Positions 7,046-40,072 of a stretch of DNA of 43,724 nt are shown in pieces. This DNA comes from a virus (Duplodnaviria; Heunggongvirae; Uroviricota; Caudoviricetes). The notes under the pieces were generated by a model. It was not told the DNA's origin. It saw only the letters and a list, made by a program, of their open reading frames with translations, and searched no databases. The position numbers were made by a program, and so were the translations under genes. The stretch's first letter is position 1; every line of letters starts with the position of its first letter. The stretch lies in the IMG/VR virus record IMGVR_UViG_2529293015_000003; one strand, given 5' to 3'.

Positions 7046-7714
7046 ACTTGCCGGGTACGTCTCCGGCGAGGGCTTCCACCTCCGTATGCTTTTCGGCGCA
7101 CCGCGCCCTGGCTGCAATTCGGTAACAGGGGATGCATAACCCTGGCTTCCAGCGTGATTAGCGCCTTCAGCATGACGGGATATACCCGTAGCAAGACGTT
7201 ATTCCTAAATTGCTAAAAGCAATTGCTGTTACGCCGAATGAAAAAGGACGTAACAGGTAAGGACGCTGACCAAAAAGATGGCCCCTTCTCGCTCATCTGG
7301 TTAATCGAACCAGCGCCCTTACCTGTTGTGCCTCCCCGTTCCCTAATACACAGACGGGGACACTCTGCGGTCGATTTTTTGACGGGGGACGACTCATACC
7401 CCGTGGCGTCTGGCTTCTTAGGCCGCTACCATCATCAGATCATCGTTTGCATTTACTTTAATGGTCAGTTTCTAAACCGCCGCAAAGTCGCTAACCATGA
7501 CGAAAACCCTGAAAAAAACGCCCACCCGAAGATGGGCAAACTGGAAGCTCGTAACGCACTTCGGTGTTGCCACTTAGGCGTATGGTCAACCTGGCAACTC
7601 GGCGTCATGATGGGGAAGGAGTCACTACCCCGCCATACTTGCCGCCGCGCCTGTCGCGGCTAACAGCTAAATCGCTCTATAAATCACGATTCATTGAGGC
7701 GATATTACACTAAT

Positions 7715-7731
7715 AAATTTATTAGAGCAAT
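7715..7731 (-). promoter_or_regulatory. C1-repressor-type operator (17/17 match to the P1 consensus ATTGCTCTAATAAATTT on the minus strand)
   Basis: Plus strand reads AAATTTATTAGAGCAAT; overlaps the dmt stop codon (7722-7724). Confidence 0.55.
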
Positions 7732-10700
7732 ATACCTAAAACGTCATGAGCTACACCTCGAGTATCCCCCTTACAAGACACAGAACGTCTGGCAAAAAGA
7801 GGTTCCACTCTGAAGCCACTGTCATGATAAAGCTCTCTGATATTTGGCGCGCCACTGTTAGTAATTAGAACCTTTGCACCTCGGCGATGAGCATCCGTCA
7901 ACAGAGACACCAGGCGTTTTTGCTCTTCAAACTTAAAGTCATGACCGGAATAGTTCGTGAATCCCTCTGTATTTGGGAGCGGTTCATACGGCGGATCGCA
8001 AAAGATGACATCTCCTTCTCCGGCAGCTTCAATCACCGCAGCAAAATCACCACATACAAACTCAGAACGCCCTTCCGCACCAAGGAAGGCTTCCATCTCC
8101 TGCAATGGGAAATACGGAGTTTTATACTTCCCATAACCGACATTGAACTCACCGGCCTGGTTGTAACGCGTCAATCCGTTAAAACAATGTCGGTTCAGGA
8201 ACAAAAACGCCGCTGCGCGATGTAAATCATCATAGACTTGTTTGTTAAACGCATTCCGTACTGCCAGGTATCCTTCCTGTGTGTTGTAGTCCTGGAAGAA
8301 ACGATGTGCCAGAGTGATAAGTGAATGCGCCTCGCGTTGCAGAGTCTTGTAAAAGTTAATCAGGTCAGCATTCACATCATTTAGCAGATTTTCCTGGTAT
8401 CCGGCATTCATGAAGACAGCTCCGCCACCAACGAAAGGTTCAATCAGGCGCTTCCCTTCTGGCAAATAGCGAAAGATTTGTTCCAGAACACCAAATTTTC
8501 CACCAGCCCATTTGAATATGGACCGTTCGAATTCTGCCGCTGGTTTAACTTTTCGCTCTTTTGTTTCACTTCCTTCTTTCTGCCGACATACGGCCTTAGT
8601 AATCCGATCGCCAATCCAGCGCATTACTGGTATTGCCATACTATTGCCGATCGCTTTGTAACGCGGCCCGTCAGCTGCAAGCATCGCGGCCTCTTCTTCG
8701 CTTAAATCTGGATAGTGATTGCGAAGATATGCCAGTTCATCTGAATTAACTTTTTTACGCTTTTCCGTCGGGATCAACGTATGCCCATCAGGAAAACCTT
8801 GCAGCCTTTCACATTCGACAGGGGTAAGACGGCGGACAGCTACTTCTGCGTTTCTTACTTCATAGCAAACAGCTGTTGGATTTTTAGCCATTAGAGATGG
8901 TGAAGTATTCTTAGTTGCAGCATGTTGTGTACCGCTCATACGCTCAGGAAAAGCCAATGTAACAAGATGCTCATGGCTTTCTTGCTCACGTGCCCGCAAT
9001 GTACCATGCCCTTCTGACCAAAAACCTGCTCCTGTGCTGCTAAAAACGGCAAGGTCAGTGGCATCTTTAAAATCTCTTGCCTTTACTGTCGATGCGGTTT
9101 CATCGTCAATATATTCCCCAAATGCTGCCATCCTGAAAGCGTTTACGGCTTTCGTCGATTTCATACCGGGTGGCATGTCAGCGTGTAGGCATGGATTTAG
9201 GCTTTCGCCACTGATTGCAGCGCCATTTGCAATAATGGCGGAAGTGATTTCCTTCTTTTTTCGGCTCGGCGCAATATTCCGGCGCACGCCTTCGAACTCA
9301 AAAAGTACCGTTGCGGGATCGAGGTCTGTTCGAGCACTTGCGACAACAAACACGCGTCGGCGTCGTTGTGCCACTCCGAAGTATTGGGCATCAAGGATTC
9401 TCCAGGCCACTTTTCGCTGCGGTCCATAAATACAACCACACTGCGGCCACTTTGGAGCATGGCAACCGGTTTTGACATCCCACCGCCAGAACGCGTTACT
9501 TTTTCCTGATTCAGGTCGATCACCTGGTTCAAATGGCGCATCTTCTCCAGCCAATCCGGCAAGGAAACATCCGAAGGCGTTATCTGCCGATGACAAGACT
9601 CCTGGGACATTTTCCCAGACGATAACGGATGGTTTGAGAAATGACTCAGCCCGTTTGTCGTCAATTGCATTTGCAAGCTCCACATACTTTAAAGTTAGCG
9701 CGCCACGCTCATCATCAAGCCCACCACGTAATCCAGCGATACTGAATGCCTGACAGTTATGGACCACCGCACCATTGAGGATATAGGAATGATCACCTTC
9801 GACTTCTATGTTGTATACAGTATCTAGGCCTACCGATTTAAACTCTTTGACTGTTCGTAAAAGCATTCCATGAGCCAATCTTGATTTACGTGACAATTTC
9901 TGCGGGCAGATTGTTACCTGATAATAATTCCGTTGATTTACCACGCGATCCTCAATCACTTTTTTGGGCTCAACTTCAATAAAGCTGACCGAAGAAACAT
10001 AACCACAAGTCTGTGACAACTCCGCAACGCCCCAAGCAAGCGCAGGACTAACACTATTAATTCTAAATCCCGCTTTACCACTTGGTGTCCCATCAGTATC
10101 AAGATAGCCTTGTAAAAACACATGACGCAATGGATGCGACATCACCCATGCAGGGATACGCTTAGCATGGCTTAACTCGCCAAAATGTTCATTAAGCCAA
10201 TTGGCATAACACGTATCATTCAAGGTTACTTTGATGCTCCCTCGGATTTCGCTTGCCACGGAAAATATGTTTTCTGGTATGCGGCAATGAAACTTTCTCA
10301 ACTTCTGGCAATTTATGCCAAAAACAACCGCCTTCTTAGATTTACCTTTCCATCTCCTAATATATCCATCGCCAACATAAGCGCCCGCAAGATACATAGC
10401 CTGTTCTTCAGACAAGAACCGAGAACAAATATCTGGAGATGCAATATTGAAATTAGTTAGAGCACACCATTGATATCCCGGCATATCACATGCTGCTCGC
10501 CATTCCGGTTCAGACAACAACTCTCTCTTAAAATATGTGCCATTTTTCCGGGTGTTTTGGGCTTTCCACCGAACCGCCAGGAAGGGATGGTCATTGGTTG
10601 TTCTTATACCTAAAGGCTGCCCAACGGCATTAAGTAACCCCGTATTAGCTATTTTTGAACCAACTCTTTTTACTTGTTGTAACCGCCCGAGATGACTGAC

Positions 10701-11009
10701 TACGTAATCGCCAGGGCAAACATCTTCTATTGGTTTATAACCATTTTTACAAAGAACCATATGCCCCGCGGTAAAACATGGTGTCCCTCCCACCAGCACA
10801 TCAGGGGCTTCAATTTCTCCAGCCTGGACTTTTTGGGCGAGTTTTGTCATGTCGCCAAGGTTGGCGACATGGGGCCAGCGGTGCGCAAGAACGGCAGATG
10901 GAAAAGGCTCTATTTCAGCAAACCACGCCGGACGCATACCCAACGGTTCCCAGGCAATACTCGCGGCTTCAATTCCACTGCAAACAGATCCATAGCACAG
11001 TTCTTTCAC
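7722..11009 (-). CDS. dmt: Bifunctional DNA methyltransferase: N-terminal C5-cytosine MTase (intein-interrupted) fused to C-terminal Dam-like N6-adenine MTase
   Basis: C5 motifs: [10 protein letters not shown] (I), [12 protein letters not shown] (IV, split by the intein), IVWENVPGV (VI), [10 protein letters not shown] (VIII), [17 protein letters not shown] (IX/X). Dam-like C-terminus: [25 protein letters not shown] start overlaps the rdgC stop (GTGA). Confidence 0.85.
9756..10778 (-). mobile_element. Intein (341 codons) with LAGLIDADG homing-endonuclease domain, inserted in the PCQ catalytic motif of the C5-MTase
   Basis: Begins Cys78 (CFTAGHMVL, block A), block [20 protein letters not shown] motifs [10 protein letters not shown] and [10 protein letters not shown], block [13 protein letters not shown], block G NGAVVHN, +1 Cys; excision joins GGTP to CQAFSIAG. 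Confidence 0.85.
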
Positions 11010-31294: not shown

Positions 31295-31512
31295 AAACCC
31301 CCCTGAACGTCGGCAGAGAAGGGGAGGCTCCAGTAACTAAGTGAATTGCGCGAATTAGTTGAAAAACGGGCTGTAAAAATGCAGGGGCCATCAGGCAATT
31401 GAGAGCGTGCTTCGTCTTCTGTTGCTGCGATAACGAAGTGATAGTGGTGTTTTTGGCAGGAGTAAAAGCGCCAGATAAATTCAGGATGAGTAGGGGTAGG
31501 GATAGTAGCCAC
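31291..31512 (-). CDS. Icd-like small ORF translationally coupled to the ant-like gene
   Basis: 73 codons, GTG start with AAGGAGG SD 8 nt upstream; stop overlaps the ant ATG. An alternative overlapping 81-codon frame (31269..31514) exists. Confidence 0.4.
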   Translation of the reverse strand: MATIPTPTHPEFIWRFYSCQKHHYHFVIAATEDEARSQLPDGPCIFTARFSTNSRNSLSYWSLPFSADVQGGL

Positions 31513-31555
31513 AATGGCAGCCTCCTTTTGCTAATTTAAGGAGCTACCGCGTGAG

Positions 31556-31640
31556 GTTCCAATCTCAATGGCGGTAGCACTGACTGGGTTGGAACTACCG
31601 GCGCAAAAGGGAACCGGCCTGCCTTTCGGCAGCCCAGCCA
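31556..31640 (-). ncRNA. c4-like antisense RNA region (immI-type translational repressor); limits approximate
   Basis: Minus-strand GCUACCGCC is complementary to GCGGUAGC just upstream of the icd-like SD and to a related GCCGGUAGUUCC segment upstream, matching the a1b1/c4/a2b2 layout recalled for P1. Confidence 0.35.
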
Positions 31641-31846
31641 GCACTACCATTGATCTCGGAGCTATGTGCTACGTATGGCTGTGCGATGGCATGACACAAA
31701 AAAAGACGCTTTTGGCGTCTGTGTCGCCTTTTGCATTATCCGGGGTTCCAATCCCAGCATCCGTTTTACTAAGATGCCTGTTTAGGATAAACCGAAAATG
31801 CATTAGCACGCAAGCAAGTTAATGTAGCATATGAAGCTAAAAAAAT

Positions 31847-31863
31847 AAAATAATTAGAGCAAC
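31847..31863 (-). promoter_or_regulatory. Degenerate C1-type operator (14/17) at the immI-like promoter
   Basis: Plus strand reads AAAATAATTAGAGCAAC. Confidence 0.35.
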
Positions 31864-32009
31864 TTGCAACCATGTGAATTATTTCTCTGGTAACTAAAAT
31901 GTATGAGTTTAATTGATATGGGTCAAAGATTTTGACCATTGCATGGTGAAACTGTATGCTACAAAATGTTATTTTAAGGCGTTTTATCTGTGGCAGGAGA
32001 TAGTTAATC

Positions 32010-32360
32010 ATGTCATCTGAACATGTTCGTAAAGGTGTAACAAATGCGAAATTCAATGAAGAGCAATCTAATATTCTCTTTATTGAAATAGGAATTCTGT
32101 CAATACTGATAGGTTTAATGTCTAAATCATGGTGGGCCTTTGGCGGTTCTTTTCTTGGACTGATTTTTAGTTTAAGAATAAAATTTCTGGCAATACCATT
32201 GATGATTGTATTTAGCTTAGTATGGGGAGCTATTGGCTATAGTATTGGTACTTTGTTTGAATCAACAGCAGCAAGTATTGTTTTGGGGGTAATTGCTTTC
32301 CTGAGTGGTTTGGGTACTCATTTTGCGGCCGTGCAATGGGCAAATGATATTGCAGAATAA
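32010..32360 (+). CDS. Small polytopic inner-membrane protein (116 aa)
   Basis: AGGAGA SD; three hydrophobic helices; AT-rich gene. Confidence 0.55.
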   Translation: MSSEHVRKGVTNAKFNEEQSNILFIEIGILSILIGLMSKSWWAFGGSFLGLIFSLRIKFLAIPLMIVFSLVWGAIGYSIGTLFESTAASIVLGVIAFLSGLGTHFAAVQWANDIAE

Positions 32361-32382
32361 TTACAGATAAGAAGCGAAAAGA

Positions 32383-32859
32383 ATGAATATGAGATGGTTT
32401 TTATTATTTGTATCGTTAGTTTCAGCAGGAACATTTGCAAAAATAGATCCTCTACAATGGAATGTAATTGAAGAGAGAGGGGGGAGAGAATATACAATCC
32501 ATAATCATAATGGTGATAAGATAAGTTTTTTATGTGATATGGGATTCATGTATGGTTCACCAGATAGTGCAGGTAGTTTAGGCTTGTTGCTAAGTTCGTC
32601 GAATAATAAAAAAGAGTATAATGCTGACAAGAATAAAATAGTATTAACTATAGATGGTGAGCAATATCCTTTTAGCAATCTTGGATCAATGGTTGGAGAT
32701 TCTTGGTGGTATGCCTTTTGGCAAGATGCAGCAGATTCAAATGCTAATATGATTGATGCTTATGTTGATAATGAAAAAATTGCTACATTCCCTCTTTCTG
32801 GGCTAAGTAAGTTGTATCAACAAGCCAAAATGGATGGATGTATTAAACGAGGCAAATGA
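32383..32859 (+). CDS. Secreted/periplasmic protein (158 aa) with signal peptide
   Basis: MNMRWFLLFVSLVSAGTFA followed by a likely signal-peptidase I site before KIDP; AT-rich gene. Confidence 0.55.
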   Translation: MNMRWFLLFVSLVSAGTFAKIDPLQWNVIEERGGREYTIHNHNGDKISFLCDMGFMYGSPDSAGSLGLLLSSSNNKKEYNADKNKIVLTIDGEQYPFSNLGSMVGDSWWYAFWQDAADSNANMIDAYVDNEKIATFPLSGLSKLYQQAKMDGCIKRGK

Positions 32860-32933
32860 TCTTTCTGTGTTAAAGATTAACGCAATCAATAAAACATTGG
32901 TTGCGTAGTATTCTATTATATAAATGGAATAAT

Positions 32934-33968
32934 ATGACAAAAATTACTAATTCTAATGAGTTGAAGTTACTGTATAAACAGTCAGTGCTCATTCCATCAT
33001 ACAAAGATCACGTAGCGATCTTGCAAAAACAATTAGGAATAGAAAAACATTCTTTTCAAAATATGACAAGATTGAATAGACAAGCTGTAATTAGTAACTC
33101 TCTTCGAAAACAATTGGCTAGTATGCCGAACTTGGCTGGAATAGGCAGCAAGTATCGTGAACATATCGCGATTTTACAGAAACAGACTCAGGCTCTTTTC
33201 CCTCATGACGCAAATAGATATATTCAAATGCTAAGGAAACAGGCCGAAATAGCTATGCCATTACGAAAACAGCTTGAGGTGCTTAATAAGCAAGCTGGTT
33301 TAAATAACATGCAAGCGATACTTAAAGAATTACAACAAAGTGCAAGTTATAAAATAGATGTAAGCCAAGACATAAAGAAAGTACTAGATCACTATGCTAG
33401 AACAAGAAATGCTTCATTACATCAAATAATAGAGCAGGGGATTTCATCTATTGCGCAGGCTTATGCTGAAGGTGCTACTGAAACATCACACACCAAAAGT
33501 AATGTTCAAAACAAAGGATTAAATAAACCTAGCTCAAAGTTTGTTGATTCATTTAAAGAGCTTCCTTATCCTCTGCAATGGTTACTAATGGTTATATTTT
33601 CTCAAGTTGTGTTTGGTGCTTTTATTGATTACGGAAAAGAGAAAACCTTGCTGGGAATACACAAGGCAGAATCATATTTTATATCTCTGTTTGAGGATAA
33701 ACCAATATCAAAGCAACAATTAATTAAAGAAAACAAAGAAATTAGTTGGGAAGATCTCAATGGTTTTCGTTTTATAACTGGTGAGAACGTAAGATTACAC
33801 GTCAGTCCTTCTATAAATAGTGAGGTGATTGAATGCATTGGCAAAAATACTATAGTGGCTGTTTTAGATAAAAAAGATCGCCAATGGCTTTTCGTGCAGG
33901 TTAAATCAGGGGACGAGTTTATTACTGGATGGATTACACGAACATACACAAAGCCTCTTAAGGCTTGA
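32934..33968 (+). CDS. Bitopic membrane protein: repeat-containing N-terminal domain, one TM helix, C-terminal SH3b-like domain
   Basis: Internal tandem repeats (HVAILQKQ...LRKQLASMPNLAG and HIAILQKQ...LRKQLEVLNKQAG), TM helix LQWLLMVIFSQVVFGAFIDY, SH3b-like C-terminus; ATG at 32934 chosen over the track's TTG at 32901. Confidence 0.5.
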   Translation: MTKITNSNELKLLYKQSVLIPSYKDHVAILQKQLGIEKHSFQNMTRLNRQAVISNSLRKQLASMPNLAGIGSKYREHIAILQKQTQALFPHDANRYIQMLRKQAEIAMPLRKQLEVLNKQAGLNNMQAILKELQQSASYKIDVSQDIKKVLDHYARTRNASLHQIIEQGISSIAQAYAEGATETSHTKSNVQNKGLNKPSSKFVDSFKELPYPLQWLLMVIFSQVVFGAFIDYGKEKTLLGIHKAESYFISLFEDKPISKQQLIKENKEISWEDLNGFRFITGENVRLHVSPSINSEVIECIGKNTIVAVLDKKDRQWLFVQVKSGDEFITGWITRTYTKPLKA

Positions 33969-34098
33969 ATTTTATCACCGTATCTTGGGGCTGGGTGTTG
34001 ATGACGATGTGCTACTTGAAGCACTTGAGTTGTTTTAACATAGTATCTGAAATGTGTAGACTGACCGGTAACAAATGACAACTCGTAGAATCGGTTAA

Positions 34099-34699: not shown

Positions 34700-35311
34700 A
34701 TGGGGCTTAATGTTGCTTCAGTAAAGTCTTATGTATCTTCGGCATTAACGACGACATTATTTGGCTCCGGCGTTGGTGAGCGGGAAGTTGGTAAGCTGAC
34801 GTCAATCATCATGAACAAAATGCTGTTCGCGCAAGGATGGCAGTTCTCTGTCGAAGTTGATGGACTGGAGGGAGCAGACTTCTTTGCCAAAGATATTACC
34901 TACCACGATTACAGCATCGAATATGAAACGATTAAAATCGGTGGAGGGAATATCCTTCAACCAACGGAGCGTTCGCCAGGGCAGATAACAATGATGGTCA
35001 GGGATACCGTTGATGGCCTCGTTTTGGACTGGTTTAAGACGGCAAAAAGTCGGGTGATCAATCCGGACGGTACCGGGAATATACCGTCTAAATATTTGCT
35101 CAATGTGCGTATTTATCGGTTGCTGTCCTCCGGTTTAACCAAACTGGAAAATGAGATGACGGTATTCCCGGTCACTACCGGCGATGTCACCTATGCGCGA
35201 GATCAGGTTACTGAATTTAAGTCATTCCCAATGACCTTCGCATTGCACAGCACGTTTAACCAATCCTCAAGTTCTTTGGCTTCCCTTTTGGGCTTTAGCT
35301 TTTCTCTTTGA
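34700..35311 (+). CDS. Tail tube-like protein (by size and position)
   Basis: 203 aa ORF two genes upstream of the sit-like gene; assignment by synteny only. Confidence 0.4.
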   Translation: MGLNVASVKSYVSSALTTTLFGSGVGEREVGKLTSIIMNKMLFAQGWQFSVEVDGLEGADFFAKDITYHDYSIEYETIKIGGGNILQPTERSPGQITMMVRDTVDGLVLDWFKTAKSRVINPDGTGNIPSKYLLNVRIYRLLSSGLTKLENEMTVFPVTTGDVTYARDQVTEFKSFPMTFALHSTFNQSSSSLASLLGFSFSL

Positions 35312-35325
35312 ATTAAGGAGCAAGG

Positions 35326-36207
35326 ATGCTTTTACCTCTTTTCCCGCTACCATCGCGGCCAACTGAATTGATCCAGTTCCGTCAGCCAAATATTGCTGAT
35401 GCGATGCGTTTCAACTCGATAACACCGGAGGAACAAGAACAACAGACAACGGCGTATTTAAAAGCCTTGCTGGCTGAACCCGCGAAACATGATCCCCTGA
35501 CATGGACGGCGCAGGACCGGATTACCGCGTTATGGTGGATATTTACCGGCTCCCGTGAAACACCGGTCGAGACATTCACCTACACCTGTAAACATTGCGG
35601 TAAAGAGCATTATTACGATTGCGATATGAATGCTCTGGCTGAAGATATCCAGGTCCTGGAAGTGGAACCGTTCATTGACGATATTGAGGTGTCTGTAGAG
35701 GGCGTGCCTTATCAATGGCGTATCGTGCCGCTTGATGGTTGGGCAATGGAAATGCTGGAGATGCGCCGTGCAGCATTGCCACCTGAAGACGACGCGGAAT
35801 TCAAAGAAGCGATCGTTGATTTGCGTTTTTGGGAATTCGCTTATCAGTGTGAACTTTATAACGATGTTAGCGGTACTCGTGAAGAGCAGGCTGAGCGTCG
35901 TTATGAAACGATCAAACGGATGGCCATTGATACTGAATTTATGAAGCTGGCGGCACACATCCGGCTGGCTCATGAAAAGCTCGAACATGGTTTACCGTGC
36001 TACATCGATAAAGGCGAAATGCGTCTTCGTCTCCCGCCGCACAAATGCCCAAACCAGGATACAAAGGAGTCCACAGAGGGTGCGTATACCCGTCTGTGGG
36101 TGCCCTTTCGGGCTACCGACTTCATTCCACAGGTGGGGATTGAAAAGCTATCAGACCTTAGTGTCCAACCTGGTTTTGTATGGGGGTATACCGATTCAGG
36201 ACGCTGA
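35326..36207 (+). CDS. Tail-region hypothetical protein
   Basis: 293 aa ORF. Confidence 0.5.
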   Translation: MLLPLFPLPSRPTELIQFRQPNIADAMRFNSITPEEQEQQTTAYLKALLAEPAKHDPLTWTAQDRITALWWIFTGSRETPVETFTYTCKHCGKEHYYDCDMNALAEDIQVLEVEPFIDDIEVSVEGVPYQWRIVPLDGWAMEMLEMRRAALPPEDDAEFKEAIVDLRFWEFAYQCELYNDVSGTREEQAERRYETIKRMAIDTEFMKLAAHIRLAHEKLEHGLPCYIDKGEMRLRLPPHKCPNQDTKESTEGAYTRLWVPFRATDFIPQVGIEKLSDLSVQPGFVWGYTDSGR

Positions 36208-36288
36208 AAGGCTCACTGAATCCTATGCGTTTTTCCTGTTGGAGAAACTGGAAGAAAAACTTAAACCGAAGCGGTAGGCGATAAGATC

Positions 36289-39200
36289 ATGGAAAGAAAA
36301 AACGCCAACATTGACGATGTGATAAGGACGGTTGAAACCGCCAGCGCAAAAGAGCTGGAAGAGCTTGCAGGTATTCGGGAAGCCGTTGAAGATTTGAAAG
36401 GGGGGCGAGTTGCTACAGTTGATCCTGTCTCTCGCAGTGTGTCGGCATTAAATCGCACAATCGAAAATTCCCGGCCAGACTTTGTGGCCAATGCGCCATC
36501 AGTGGACCCTATTGTTGAGGCAATGAAACGGCTTAATTTAGGGGACGTTTCTCGTGTAGTTCAGGAGGATGTTGCTCTACAGGAACCGCAGGCCAAATCA
36601 ACTACGCGAAAGGATAAAAAACGACGCAAGAAGGCTATAACAGCAGATGTAAAGGCGCAACGGACCGAAGCAGCCGAACACGCTCGCGAAATGTTCGGTC
36701 AAAAAGGCGGTGCGCAAAAAAGCCAAAACCAACGCGATGCGCGTGGTCGTTTTATTGGAAAGTCAGGGAGTAAGGCCGCAGCGGAAGATGCCCGTGCTGA
36801 ACGTGCTGAAAAGGCCAGGCGCAAAGAGGATGATGAGCGTCTAAATGCTGAATCAGGTTTATTAAAAAAACTGTCAAAAGTAGCTGAAGGCATAGGTAAC
36901 CCTTCAGAGACTCGTGCCGTCGATGCGTTAGGTTATGCCGTTGCTGGTCCATTGTGGGCAGCAGGGAAGGAGCTTGGCGGGATATCAAAAGAAGTTGGTG
37001 GATCGCTTAATGGTGCCAGAAAGTCTATTGCCGATGTGATTCGTGGCAATGACGATAACAGCCGTAGAAAAGGTTTTTTAGGCGTAAATCGCAAAATAGT
37101 GCCGATGTCGTTCAGGTTAACACCCAAAAACGGACGGTTCAGGAGCTTCAGGAGCAGACCAGCGAAATTAAAGAGGGCAATGACAAGATTCTCAGCGCCC
37201 TTGATCAGATAGCCAAAAACACCGGGAAAAAGAAGGGCGGCTTGCTGTCCAAACTATTTAGCCTGTTAGGGAAGGGGGCCGGAGGTATTGCTTCCCTTAT
37301 TTTTGGCCGTGGGGCACTAAAGAAAGTTGGCTCGATGGCACTAGGTGCTTTAGGTATAAAAAAAGTTGCAAGCTTATTGGGCTTTGGTGGAAAAAAAGCT
37401 GCTGCCAAAGAAGCTGGCGAATTGGCTACTCGCGGTGCCGGAAAACTTGCAACTAAGGGATTGGGGAAACTAGGTGTTAAGGCGCTTGCAAAGGGGGCTT
37501 TACGCGCAATTCCGCTAGTCGGCACGGTGGCTGGAGGTATCTATGATGCGGTAACCGGTTGGAATGATACAGAAGCACAACGTCGGGCGTTTGGGCTTAA
37601 AGATGGAGAAAATCCATCTTTTCAGCAAAAAGCAGCCTATACGCTGGCTAATGTTCTCGATATGGGGGGGTTGGTATCTGGTATTAGCAGCGCCATTGGC
37701 GGTGTTCTCAAATCACTTGGATTTGAGGATATCGGTAATATGTTACAATCATTTTCGACGGAAAGTATTGCACAGGCCATTGATAGTGGGATTACCAGTT
37801 TAGAAACGTATATTTCTAACCTTGGTGACACTATATCCACGACATTTAGTGATTATACCGCAAAGATTGGTGATGCTATATCTGCATGGTTCAGTGACAC
37901 TACAAAGAATCTGAACGAAAAATTAGACGCCATCAAAAACTTCTTTACTGTCGATAACCTGAAACAGGTTTTCAGTGATGCAATTAATAGTGCAATTGAT
38001 TTCATTAAGAACCCAGGGAAATACATTAAAGAGGCTGGCAGTAATCTATGGAGTGCCGCAAAAGAGCTTTCAGGTGAAGTTGTAGATGCCGCTGTTCAGA
38101 GCACCCCTGTAGCCTGGGTTGCATCAAAGCTAGTCAAAAAAGCGGATGCGAAAGAGGTTAAACCTGAATTAAAAACACCTGCTAAAGAAAGTCAGGAGGG
38201 CAATGCTCCTAAAACTGAATATACCCCTAAAAAGGCTAATATTGTCACTCGTGTTGTAAATGCATCCCTAGATACAGCGAAAGATAGCAATAAAACAGTT
38301 AAAGAAACTGCCAATCAGATTATCAAGGCAAATGCCGTAGAAACGGGCAATCGCGCGTTGCAGAAAATTGATAATGCTATTGGTCAAAATAGCTCATCAT
38401 CATCGTCGCTTAATACTACTGGCACCAGGAATGACATTCAGAAAGCTGCGGATACCTACAACAATGGCAACTTGGATGTAAAAGTCGGAAGCCTTGGCGC
38501 TGAAGGTAAGGCAAATCTCGATAAGTTGGCTCCGTATTTTGCTGAACTAGAGAATAAATATGGCCTTCCTGAAGGTACTCTTTACGCGATCGCTGCAACT
38601 GAATCTGGTGGTGATCCTAACGCAAAATCTACGCTTACAAGATCACCAAATGGAAAGCTAAGTGGTGGCGCTCTCGGAATGTTCCAGTTTACGAGCGTTG
38701 CTCGTGAGGAAACTGGATTATCCCGGGAAGATTCTTTTAATCCGGAAAAATCGGCAGAAGCTGCGGCTCTTCTCATGAGCAAGTATCTGAAGCAAGCCAA
38801 TGGAGACTTAAACGAGGCCATCACTGCATATAACGCTGGGTTTGGCACTATCAATAAGTGGAAAAAAGGCACAGGTGACTTATCGAAAGAAAACCGTGAG
38901 TACGCGATCAAGGTCAATACTCATCGTGCTCGCTATTTAGGTGGTGAAATCTATACACCTGGAGCAGGAGCACAGGGTGGGGCGCAATATGGAGTGAGGG
39001 GACCACTGCCTGATAACGCCGTTATCGATCAGTCTACTGGCTTGGCGTTTACCCCTGGTGATAGCCCGTTTGAGAAAGGCGGTCTGGTAGACAAAATTGG
39101 CAATGCTGTTGGCGTTAACGATCTGGTCAACAAATTCATGAATGGCCGGGGTATGCGTCGGGAAGTCGTTCAGGGAACGCTCGAAGAACGTGCACGAGGG

Positions 39201-39716
39201 AAGGGGACCGCAACAGCAGCTGGCAATGTGTATGTTGATACTCCGATGCCAGTTGAAGAGGCGCGTCCGGTGGCCAGCAACTCAAGTTACTTTGACCAAC
39301 TCGGCGCACAAATGGGGATTGATGGACTGTATGACAAACTCATTAATGCCCGGGGAATGCGCTCAAATAATTCTCCTCAACCAGCTTCCACGTCCCAGAT
39401 GACGACTGCCGCCAACGATTTGCAGCAACCAACTGGTCGTATGCAGATAGACGGGCAGGTTATTAGTGACCTTGGCGGTTCCGGTGCCAAGCCGACAATG
39501 CAGTTGGCTGATAATACCGTTTCACTTGATGGTGAAACGAAGCGGCTGTTTGCGCAGATGACCTCATTGCTTGCCAGGATTGAAGAGCACACCAAAGACT
39601 CGGCGAAAGGCCAGGGAACTGTCGTAAAGGTCAGCACGCCTCAGCCGGGCGTTATGCGCACGGTACCACTGTCAATTGATGATCCGTTGATGAATGACTA
39701 CGCGAGAGTTGATTGA
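36289..39716 (+). CDS. sit: Sit-like tail protein with lytic transglycosylase domain (tape measure/injection protein), interrupted by a -1 frameshift at 37074-37080
   Basis: ORFs 36289..37212 and 37242..39716; the downstream frame is open from 37068; slippery heptamer T TTT TTA at 37074-37080; SLT-like motifs AIAATESGGDPNA, LGMFQFT, AYNAGFGTINKW. Confidence 0.6.
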
Positions 39717-40072
39717 TGGCCAACAATAACGAAATTGATCCTTTGCTGACGCTGGAGTTATCCGGCGTAAAAACGTATGAGTCCCAGGAGGAGGCCTGGG
39801 GCGCTCGTTTATATGAGTGGCTAAACACTTATCAGGGTGAGGTATACGGGGATCCGTCATGGGGCAATGTTTTACCGCAGTTTAAACACGAACCGACCAA
39901 CTTGTCGCATGTTCAAATTGCGGTTGAGGCAATGCTGTTGCAAAAACTGACGGTAGATTTACCTGACATACCGATTTCTGGCTTGTCAGTAGCCGAGGGA
40001 GATGCTTTTGATAAGTTGAAAATATCCATTCGTATCAGGGATATAACTATCACACAGGACGTGGTGCTATGA
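39713..40072 (+). CDS. Tail/baseplate-region hypothetical protein
   Basis: 119 aa; start overlaps the sit-like stop and its stop overlaps the next gene. Confidence 0.5.
   Translation: MMANNNEIDPLLTLELSGVKTYESQEEAWGARLYEWLNTYQGEVYGDPSWGNVLPQFKHEPTNLSHVQIAVEAMLLQKLTVDLPDIPISGLSVAEGDAFDKLKISIRIRDITITQDVVL

Follow-up and report, generated by a model that had tools for sequence, protein, structure and literature searches.

The P1-like plasmid prophage of Escherichia coli B093 carries a sit gene divided in two open reading frames, and we conclude, with a probability of about 0.83, that the division is a genuine deletion of one nucleotide by strand slippage, which shortened a conserved run of seven T residues (T7) to six (T6). 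The DNA analyzed in this work, referred to as the window, is a stretch of 43,724 nt that corresponds to the complete contig CADHNQ010000056.1 of the assembly GCA_902849155.1. An earlier note, made from these letters, had described the split and left three explanations without ranking them: programmed −1 frameshifting, a real deletion of 1 nt that generates a pseudogene, and a homopolymer sequencing error. The T7 run found in the relatives and a second assembly that carries the same T6 run favor the real deletion.

The divided sit gene and its surroundings

The window belongs to a P1-type (Punavirus) phage-plasmid and is collinear, in reverse orientation, with the P1 genome from position 76300 down to 37095. 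When the P1 proteins were compared with the window using tblastn, the genes tub, pmgB, sit, pmgA and bplA were located in the same order as in P1 between positions 34700 and 41499, and sit is the only gene present between pmgB and pmgA. Both neighbors are intact and lie on the + strand; the product of pmgB (35326..36207) is 99.7% identical to P1 PmgB, and that of pmgA (39716..40072) is 100% identical to P1 PmgA. The region 36289-39716 matches sit of P1, P7, SJ46, RCS47 and phi456 at 93-96% nucleotide identity, and it is also matched in about 480 plasmids.

The 5’ part of sit (+ strand) is contained in frame 1, in an ORF of 307 amino acids that starts with ATG (36289..37212). Its codons 1 to 263 encode the native Sit sequence up to ...RRKGF; from Leu264, whose TTA codon spans the deletion site, the frame continues out of register for 44 codons until the TAG at 37210-37212. 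The 3’ part, also on the + strand, lies in frame 0, that is −1 with respect to frame 1; this frame has a TAG at 37065-37067 and then no other stop until 39714-39716, so that the region 37068..39716 includes 883 sense codons plus the stop. In the mechanical list of ORFs this frame appears as an ORF of 824 amino acids (37242..39716), because TTG 37242 is the first start codon present in it. The upstream TAG marks how far 5’ a change of frame could occur and still rescue the protein. The T6 run occupies positions 37074-37079 (+ strand) and is followed by A at 37080; the frame 1 codons are GGT TTT TTA, and the heptamer T_TTT_TTA (37074..37080) is therefore in the X_XXY_YYZ phase with respect to the upstream frame. 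The coordinates that had been given for the two frames, the upstream TAG and the heptamer were exact upon recheck, and the frame analysis at 37065-37080 confirmed both the −1 relation and the geometry of the split. A functional sit has an uninterrupted reading frame; in the window, the frame changes at 37074-37080.

Insertion of one T in the run restores an uninterrupted protein of 1142 amino acids, which agrees with the length that had been predicted (about 1142) for the joined frames; P1 Sit has 1140 residues. The restored protein reads KGFFRRKSQ across the junction, and it is identical in 1106 of 1142 positions (97%), with no gaps, to the intact protein WP_096917225.1 (1142 residues). Its residues 750-869 match the SLT domain (PF01464) with an E value of 1.1e-25 and a score of 89.9 bits versus a cut-off of 21.3; computed from these residues, the coding region of the domain is 38535..38894 (+ strand). 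The proposal that the gene is P1 sit is thus borne out by the pmgB and pmgA neighbors, the SLT domain and the homology along the full length.

The window shows other features that differ from P1. The dmt gene product (7722-11009, − strand) is a single ORF of 1095 amino acids versus 754 in P1, and it carries an in-frame insert of about 340 residues (about 9756-10775) that has the typical features of an intein. This insert is bounded as ...GGTP / CFTAGHMV ... GAVVHN / CQAFS; it includes a Hint domain and a LAGLIDADG_3 endonuclease domain, and it directly precedes the catalytic Cys of the PCQ motif of the C5-methyltransferase. As judged from its sequence, the insert has the makeup of a canonical intein. 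It is present, with 95-100% identity, in 133 plasmid records and in 5 phage records including RCS47, and a literature search retrieved no description of it. An insert absent from P1 interrupts upfA (14235-16042) and contains an ORF for a transposase of the IS91 family (14670..15857; Y2_Tnp, E = 1.5e-39; Zn_Tnp_IS91). At 16595-17515 there is a plasmid replication initiator of the Rep3 type that is only 42% identical to P1 RepA, hence the replicon type differs from that of P1; it is followed by an ORF with a T5orf172 domain (17808-18617). The regions 26588-28478 and 31486-34069 have no counterpart in P1. The former includes an outer-membrane β-barrel protein of the Ail/Lom type (27804..28319, − strand), and the latter, which replaces simABC of P1, carries several ORFs, among them a YfjT-family protein and a protein of 344 residues with a weak SH3_3 match.

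Length of the T run among relatives

In an alignment of sit from the window, P1, SJ46 and phi456, the only gap of 1 nt is located at the T run, which is T7 in the three references and T6 in the window; a pairwise blastn comparison with P1 reveals further small gaps in the divergent central region of sit that offset each other. The length of the run was scored at a larger scale with a pattern that permits from T5 to T8. With this pattern, T7 was found in 82 of 82 IMG/VR contigs, 2 of 2 GTDB representative genomes, 3 of 3 phage loci and 50 of 50 metagenome contigs, so that all the 137 pattern-matched loci showed T7 and a single frame. Using a query of 91 nt, the site was detected in 471 records of E. 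coli complete genomes and in 478 plasmid records. Given that the identity bands of this query do not distinguish T7 from T6 plus one SNP, the records were recounted with a T6-specific 37-mer that is unable to seed on T7, and this 37-mer was present in 1 of the 471 genome records and 3 of the 478 plasmid records. The T6-bearing records are NZ_CP123964.1, CP042641.1 and CP121349.1, and they are 92-94% identical to the window; at this identity they were discarded as its relatives, and their T6 runs represent independent events or errors. In each of them, tub, pmgB, sit or bplA carry several more frameshifts over a stretch of 8 kb, for which reason they were judged to be error-rich assemblies, likely submitted as finished sequence with the homopolymer errors of long reads still uncorrected.

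The comparison with intact sit homologues that the earlier note had suggested therefore yielded T7 and one continuous ORF in the sound relatives. Judging from the aligned sequences, T7 is the conserved form of the run and the T6 heptamer a derived one, and the split is absent from every sound relative examined. Since the shortening from T7 to T6 directly produces the heptamer, its presence at the junction of the frames requires no coincidence statistics. The description of the site as a classic slippery site was right as to the heptamer and its phase; the emphasis placed on it was misleading, since the heptamer merely arose as a side effect when the T was lost.

These results bear on the idea that a regulated slip on T_TTT_TTA yields a short and a long Sit product. 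The heptamer is correctly phased, the −1 frame opens just upstream of it, the product of a −1 slip would be full-length Sit with Phe264 replaced by Leu, which is nearly native, and in reticulocyte lysate, a eukaryotic system, U6A slips at 4-6% without any stimulator (PMC3458567). Against this possibility, the layout in two frames is not conserved, since all the sound relatives have T7 and one ORF. The stem-loop that the earlier note had proposed to look for downstream as a stimulator did not appear in folds computed without pseudoknots: the 90 nt located 3’ of the heptamer gave −15.9 kcal/mol versus a mean of −17.7 for shuffled sequences (z = +0.65), and the first 50 nt gave z = −0.02, so that folding was no better than that of shuffled sequences. 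A scan against Rfam revealed no family with an E value better than 0.61, that is, no significant element. No Shine-Dalgarno sequence is present at about 10 nt upstream of the heptamer, where the only purine-rich stretch, AAAAGG, abuts it. In a systematic study carried out in E. coli, the background was 0.055% and motifs lacking stimulators gave ratios from 2 to 10 over it, hence a heptamer of this kind would reach at most about 10 times the background; moreover, the U-type motifs that were efficient belong to the class with U or C, not A, as the last base (PMC4066793). The frameshift present in repL, described below, falls outside any X_XXY_YYZ motif. Apart from the phased heptamer, the sit split lacks the features by which programmed −1 sites are recognized, and with T7 in the relatives, no stimulator and a motif that is weak in E. 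coli, we regard programmed frameshifting as scarcely credible.

In tail genes, the known frameshift occurs in the chaperone gene located upstream of the tape measure gene, and not inside the latter. At the position where the extensions of tail chaperones produced by frameshifting occur, the window has an ORF of 101 codons (35972-36277, + strand) in the +1 frame, which overlaps the 3’ terminal 236 nt of pmgB and terminates 12 nt upstream of sit; the phi456 record has a small hypothetical gene annotated at this place. This ORF has no Pfam match, only the ~29 codons at its end resemble protein-coding sequence, and a clear slippery site was not observed. Its interpretation as a frameshift of the tail-chaperone type was set aside, considering the +1 frame, a sequence that for the most part looks out of frame, and the lack of a Pfam match.

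Origin of the assembly and the second lesion in repL

The same split was found in a second assembly. Products identical to the 307- and 824-residue ORFs are annotated in E. coli B093 (EHN94217.1 and EHN94218.1), and the Broad Institute scaffold of this strain, JH590659.1 (100,856 nt), also encodes RepL in pieces of 192 and 88 residues. This scaffold and the window are 100.000% identical, with no gaps, along 20.6 kb (window positions 18678-39256), and both have T6 in sit and in repL. According to Touchon et al. 2020, the assemblies that were not sequenced at the Broad were submitted to ENA (PMC7314097). B093 is an isolate from bird feces from New South Wales and is listed as sequenced by Illumina MiSeq at ~31x (PMC7314097, S1 Dataset), whereas 70 isolates of the same collection were sequenced by Roche 454 at the Broad (PMC7314097). 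The Broad scaffold taken alone is not decisive, because 454 sequencing is prone to homopolymer errors. Nonetheless, the sequence identity together with the table of that paper, rather than a mapping of accessions, indicate that the window is very probably the Illumina MiSeq assembly of B093, and given this origin of GCA_902849155.1, two independent data sets very probably agree on T6.

The second lesion affects repL, the gene of the lytic replication initiator (28415..29256, − strand), which is divided in ORFs of 192 and 88 amino acids; P1 RepL has 281. It is also a deletion from T7 to T6 on the + strand (28729-28734), and in the coding strand it appears as a shortening from A7 to A6. The context of this lesion, ATT AAA AAA CAA, is not an X_XXY_YYZ motif, therefore the lesions of sit and repL share a mutational cause and not one related to recoding. 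The T6 run of repL is also present in 5 of 84 P1-like loci from IMG/VR, and the 88-residue fragment of RepL is found in other assemblies, including complete plasmids of E. albertii; from this distribution, the run looks like a recurrent site of inactivation. The closest relative of the window at repL (L120, 99.6% identical) has T7.

When about 44 genes of the window were checked one by one against P1, frameshifts were observed in sit and repL only, and about 40 genes were intact. Four other runs of seven bases in the window are unchanged with respect to P1, as are 133 of 157 runs of 5-6 bases. The altered runs mostly carry base substitutions, two are part of larger deletions, and a single run of six gained a base; none of the 157 runs compared had lost a single base relative to P1. 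The only homopolymer that is longer than in P1 is an intergenic A run (7512-7518) in a dicF-like region, with A7 versus A6. The idea that the window comes from a generally error-rich assembly was discarded, since only two lesions were found across all the P1 genes and the homopolymers of at least 5 bases.

The alternative that sit is intact in the real plasmid, with a T7 run, and that T6 is an error of sequencing or assembly in the length of the homopolymer, draws on the fact that both frameshifts of the window are reductions from 7 to 6 in T runs; taken alone, such a pair of lesions fits replication slippage or a homopolymer-biased platform alike. In addition, all the other database records with T6 at the sit site are error-rich assemblies, and part of the collection of B093 was sequenced by Roche 454 at the Broad. 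However, the Broad scaffold and the ENA contig were produced separately and agree in both T6 runs; for a strain listed as MiSeq at ~31x, a miscall between T6 and T7 in the consensus is improbable; no further frameshift occurs in about 42 genes of the window, unlike the error-rich records; and the 88-residue RepL product is present in other assemblies, among them the complete E. albertii plasmids. We therefore consider the sequencing error, one of the three explanations initially proposed, to be unlikely.

Predicted consequences and comparison with known systems

In the favored explanation, a real deletion, slipped-strand mispairing during replication would have removed one T from the T7 run of sit. 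Translation of sit would then stop after 307 codons, 263 native and 44 out of frame, and the 824 C-terminal codons, including those of the SLT domain, would at best be translated separately by re-initiation at TTG 37242. This TTG is located 30 nt past the upstream stop and has the Shine-Dalgarno-like sequence AGAAGGG a few bases 5’ of it. A rare spontaneous −1 slip on U_UUU_UUA, expected at a sub-percent level in E. coli, would be the sole route to full-length Sit, in the form of Phe264Leu. Given that Sit is the presumed tail ruler, tail assembly would be expected to fail or to be very inefficient. Judging from its gene content, the element of B093, with both sit and repL broken, is probably unable to complete the lytic cycle, and it most likely persists as a plasmid by means of the intact parA and parB genes and the Rep3-type initiator. 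That none of the 883 downstream codons has become a stop suggests a recent mutation in sit; an artefact, or a leaky gene still under selection, would explain this observation equally well.

It could be proposed that the deletion is real and functionally tolerated, either because slippage supplies enough Sit or because the pieces of 307 and 824 residues work separately, in which case the phage would still be viable, perhaps with altered tails. Few copies of the tape measure are needed per phage tail, the downstream frame is stop-free along 883 codons and 97% identical to intact homologues, and the TTG with its AGAAGGG sequence lies close to the upstream stop. On the other hand, the allele was found in one strain among ~1,000 elements with no sign of spread, the expected slippage is not higher than 0.5%, and repL is also broken, so that lytic growth is probably impaired anyway. 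A search for promoters and terminators, relevant for a reading of the region as two separate genes, gave matches at chance level only. We give little credence to this alternative, and equally little to its particular form in which the heptamer created by the deletion would save the gene, either by slipping enough to provide Sit(F264L) or with a split tape measure built from the two pieces; if this were the case, the element of B093 would still be able to assemble tails, perhaps in small numbers or of reduced length.

Taken as a real deletion, the split represents an ordinary frameshift mutation in a known gene, and PGAP already labels equivalent cases as frameshifted. Annotation should treat both ORFs as a single frameshifted sit pseudogene, instead of a pair of hypothetical proteins or a recoding site, and the heptamer should be kept out of the catalogues of programmed frameshifts. 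With lesions in both sit and repL, this P1-like element is probably a defective prophage that is maintained as a plasmid; this is a small data point on the decay of phage-plasmids and it opens no new question.

Among known systems, the closest counterpart is Sit of P1 (AAQ14011.1, 1140 residues), described in the P1 record as a putative structural injection transglycosylase and putative tail ruler. The gene of the window shares with it the position in the order tub-pmgB-sit-pmgA-bplA, a nucleotide identity of ~95%, the SLT domain and, after one T is restored, an identical sequence at the junction (…RRKGFFRRKSQNS…). In contrast with P1 sit, it has T6 instead of T7 and is thus divided in two ORFs, and its center is mosaic and contains several indels with respect to P1 that maintain the frame; the best intact match of its product is WP_096917225.1 (1142 residues, 97%). 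A similar lesion is present in QC817_RS23295 (NZ_CP123964.1), a pseudogene annotated as a lytic transglycosylase domain-containing protein and labelled as frameshifted by PGAP, in which the same change from T7 to T6 occurs at the same site; unlike P1-like pseudogene records such as this one, the window is clean in other respects, and a second assembly reproduces its T6 run. With canonical −1 frameshift sites, such as U_UUU_UUA of HIV-1 gag-pol, A_AAA_AAG of E. coli dnaX and those of the tail-chaperone genes G/GT of phages, the window shares a phased X_XXY_YYZ heptamer and a long −1 ORF; it differs from them in that its site has neither a stimulatory structure nor a well-spaced upstream Shine-Dalgarno sequence, its layout is not conserved among homologues, and its motif is not an efficient one in E. 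coli.
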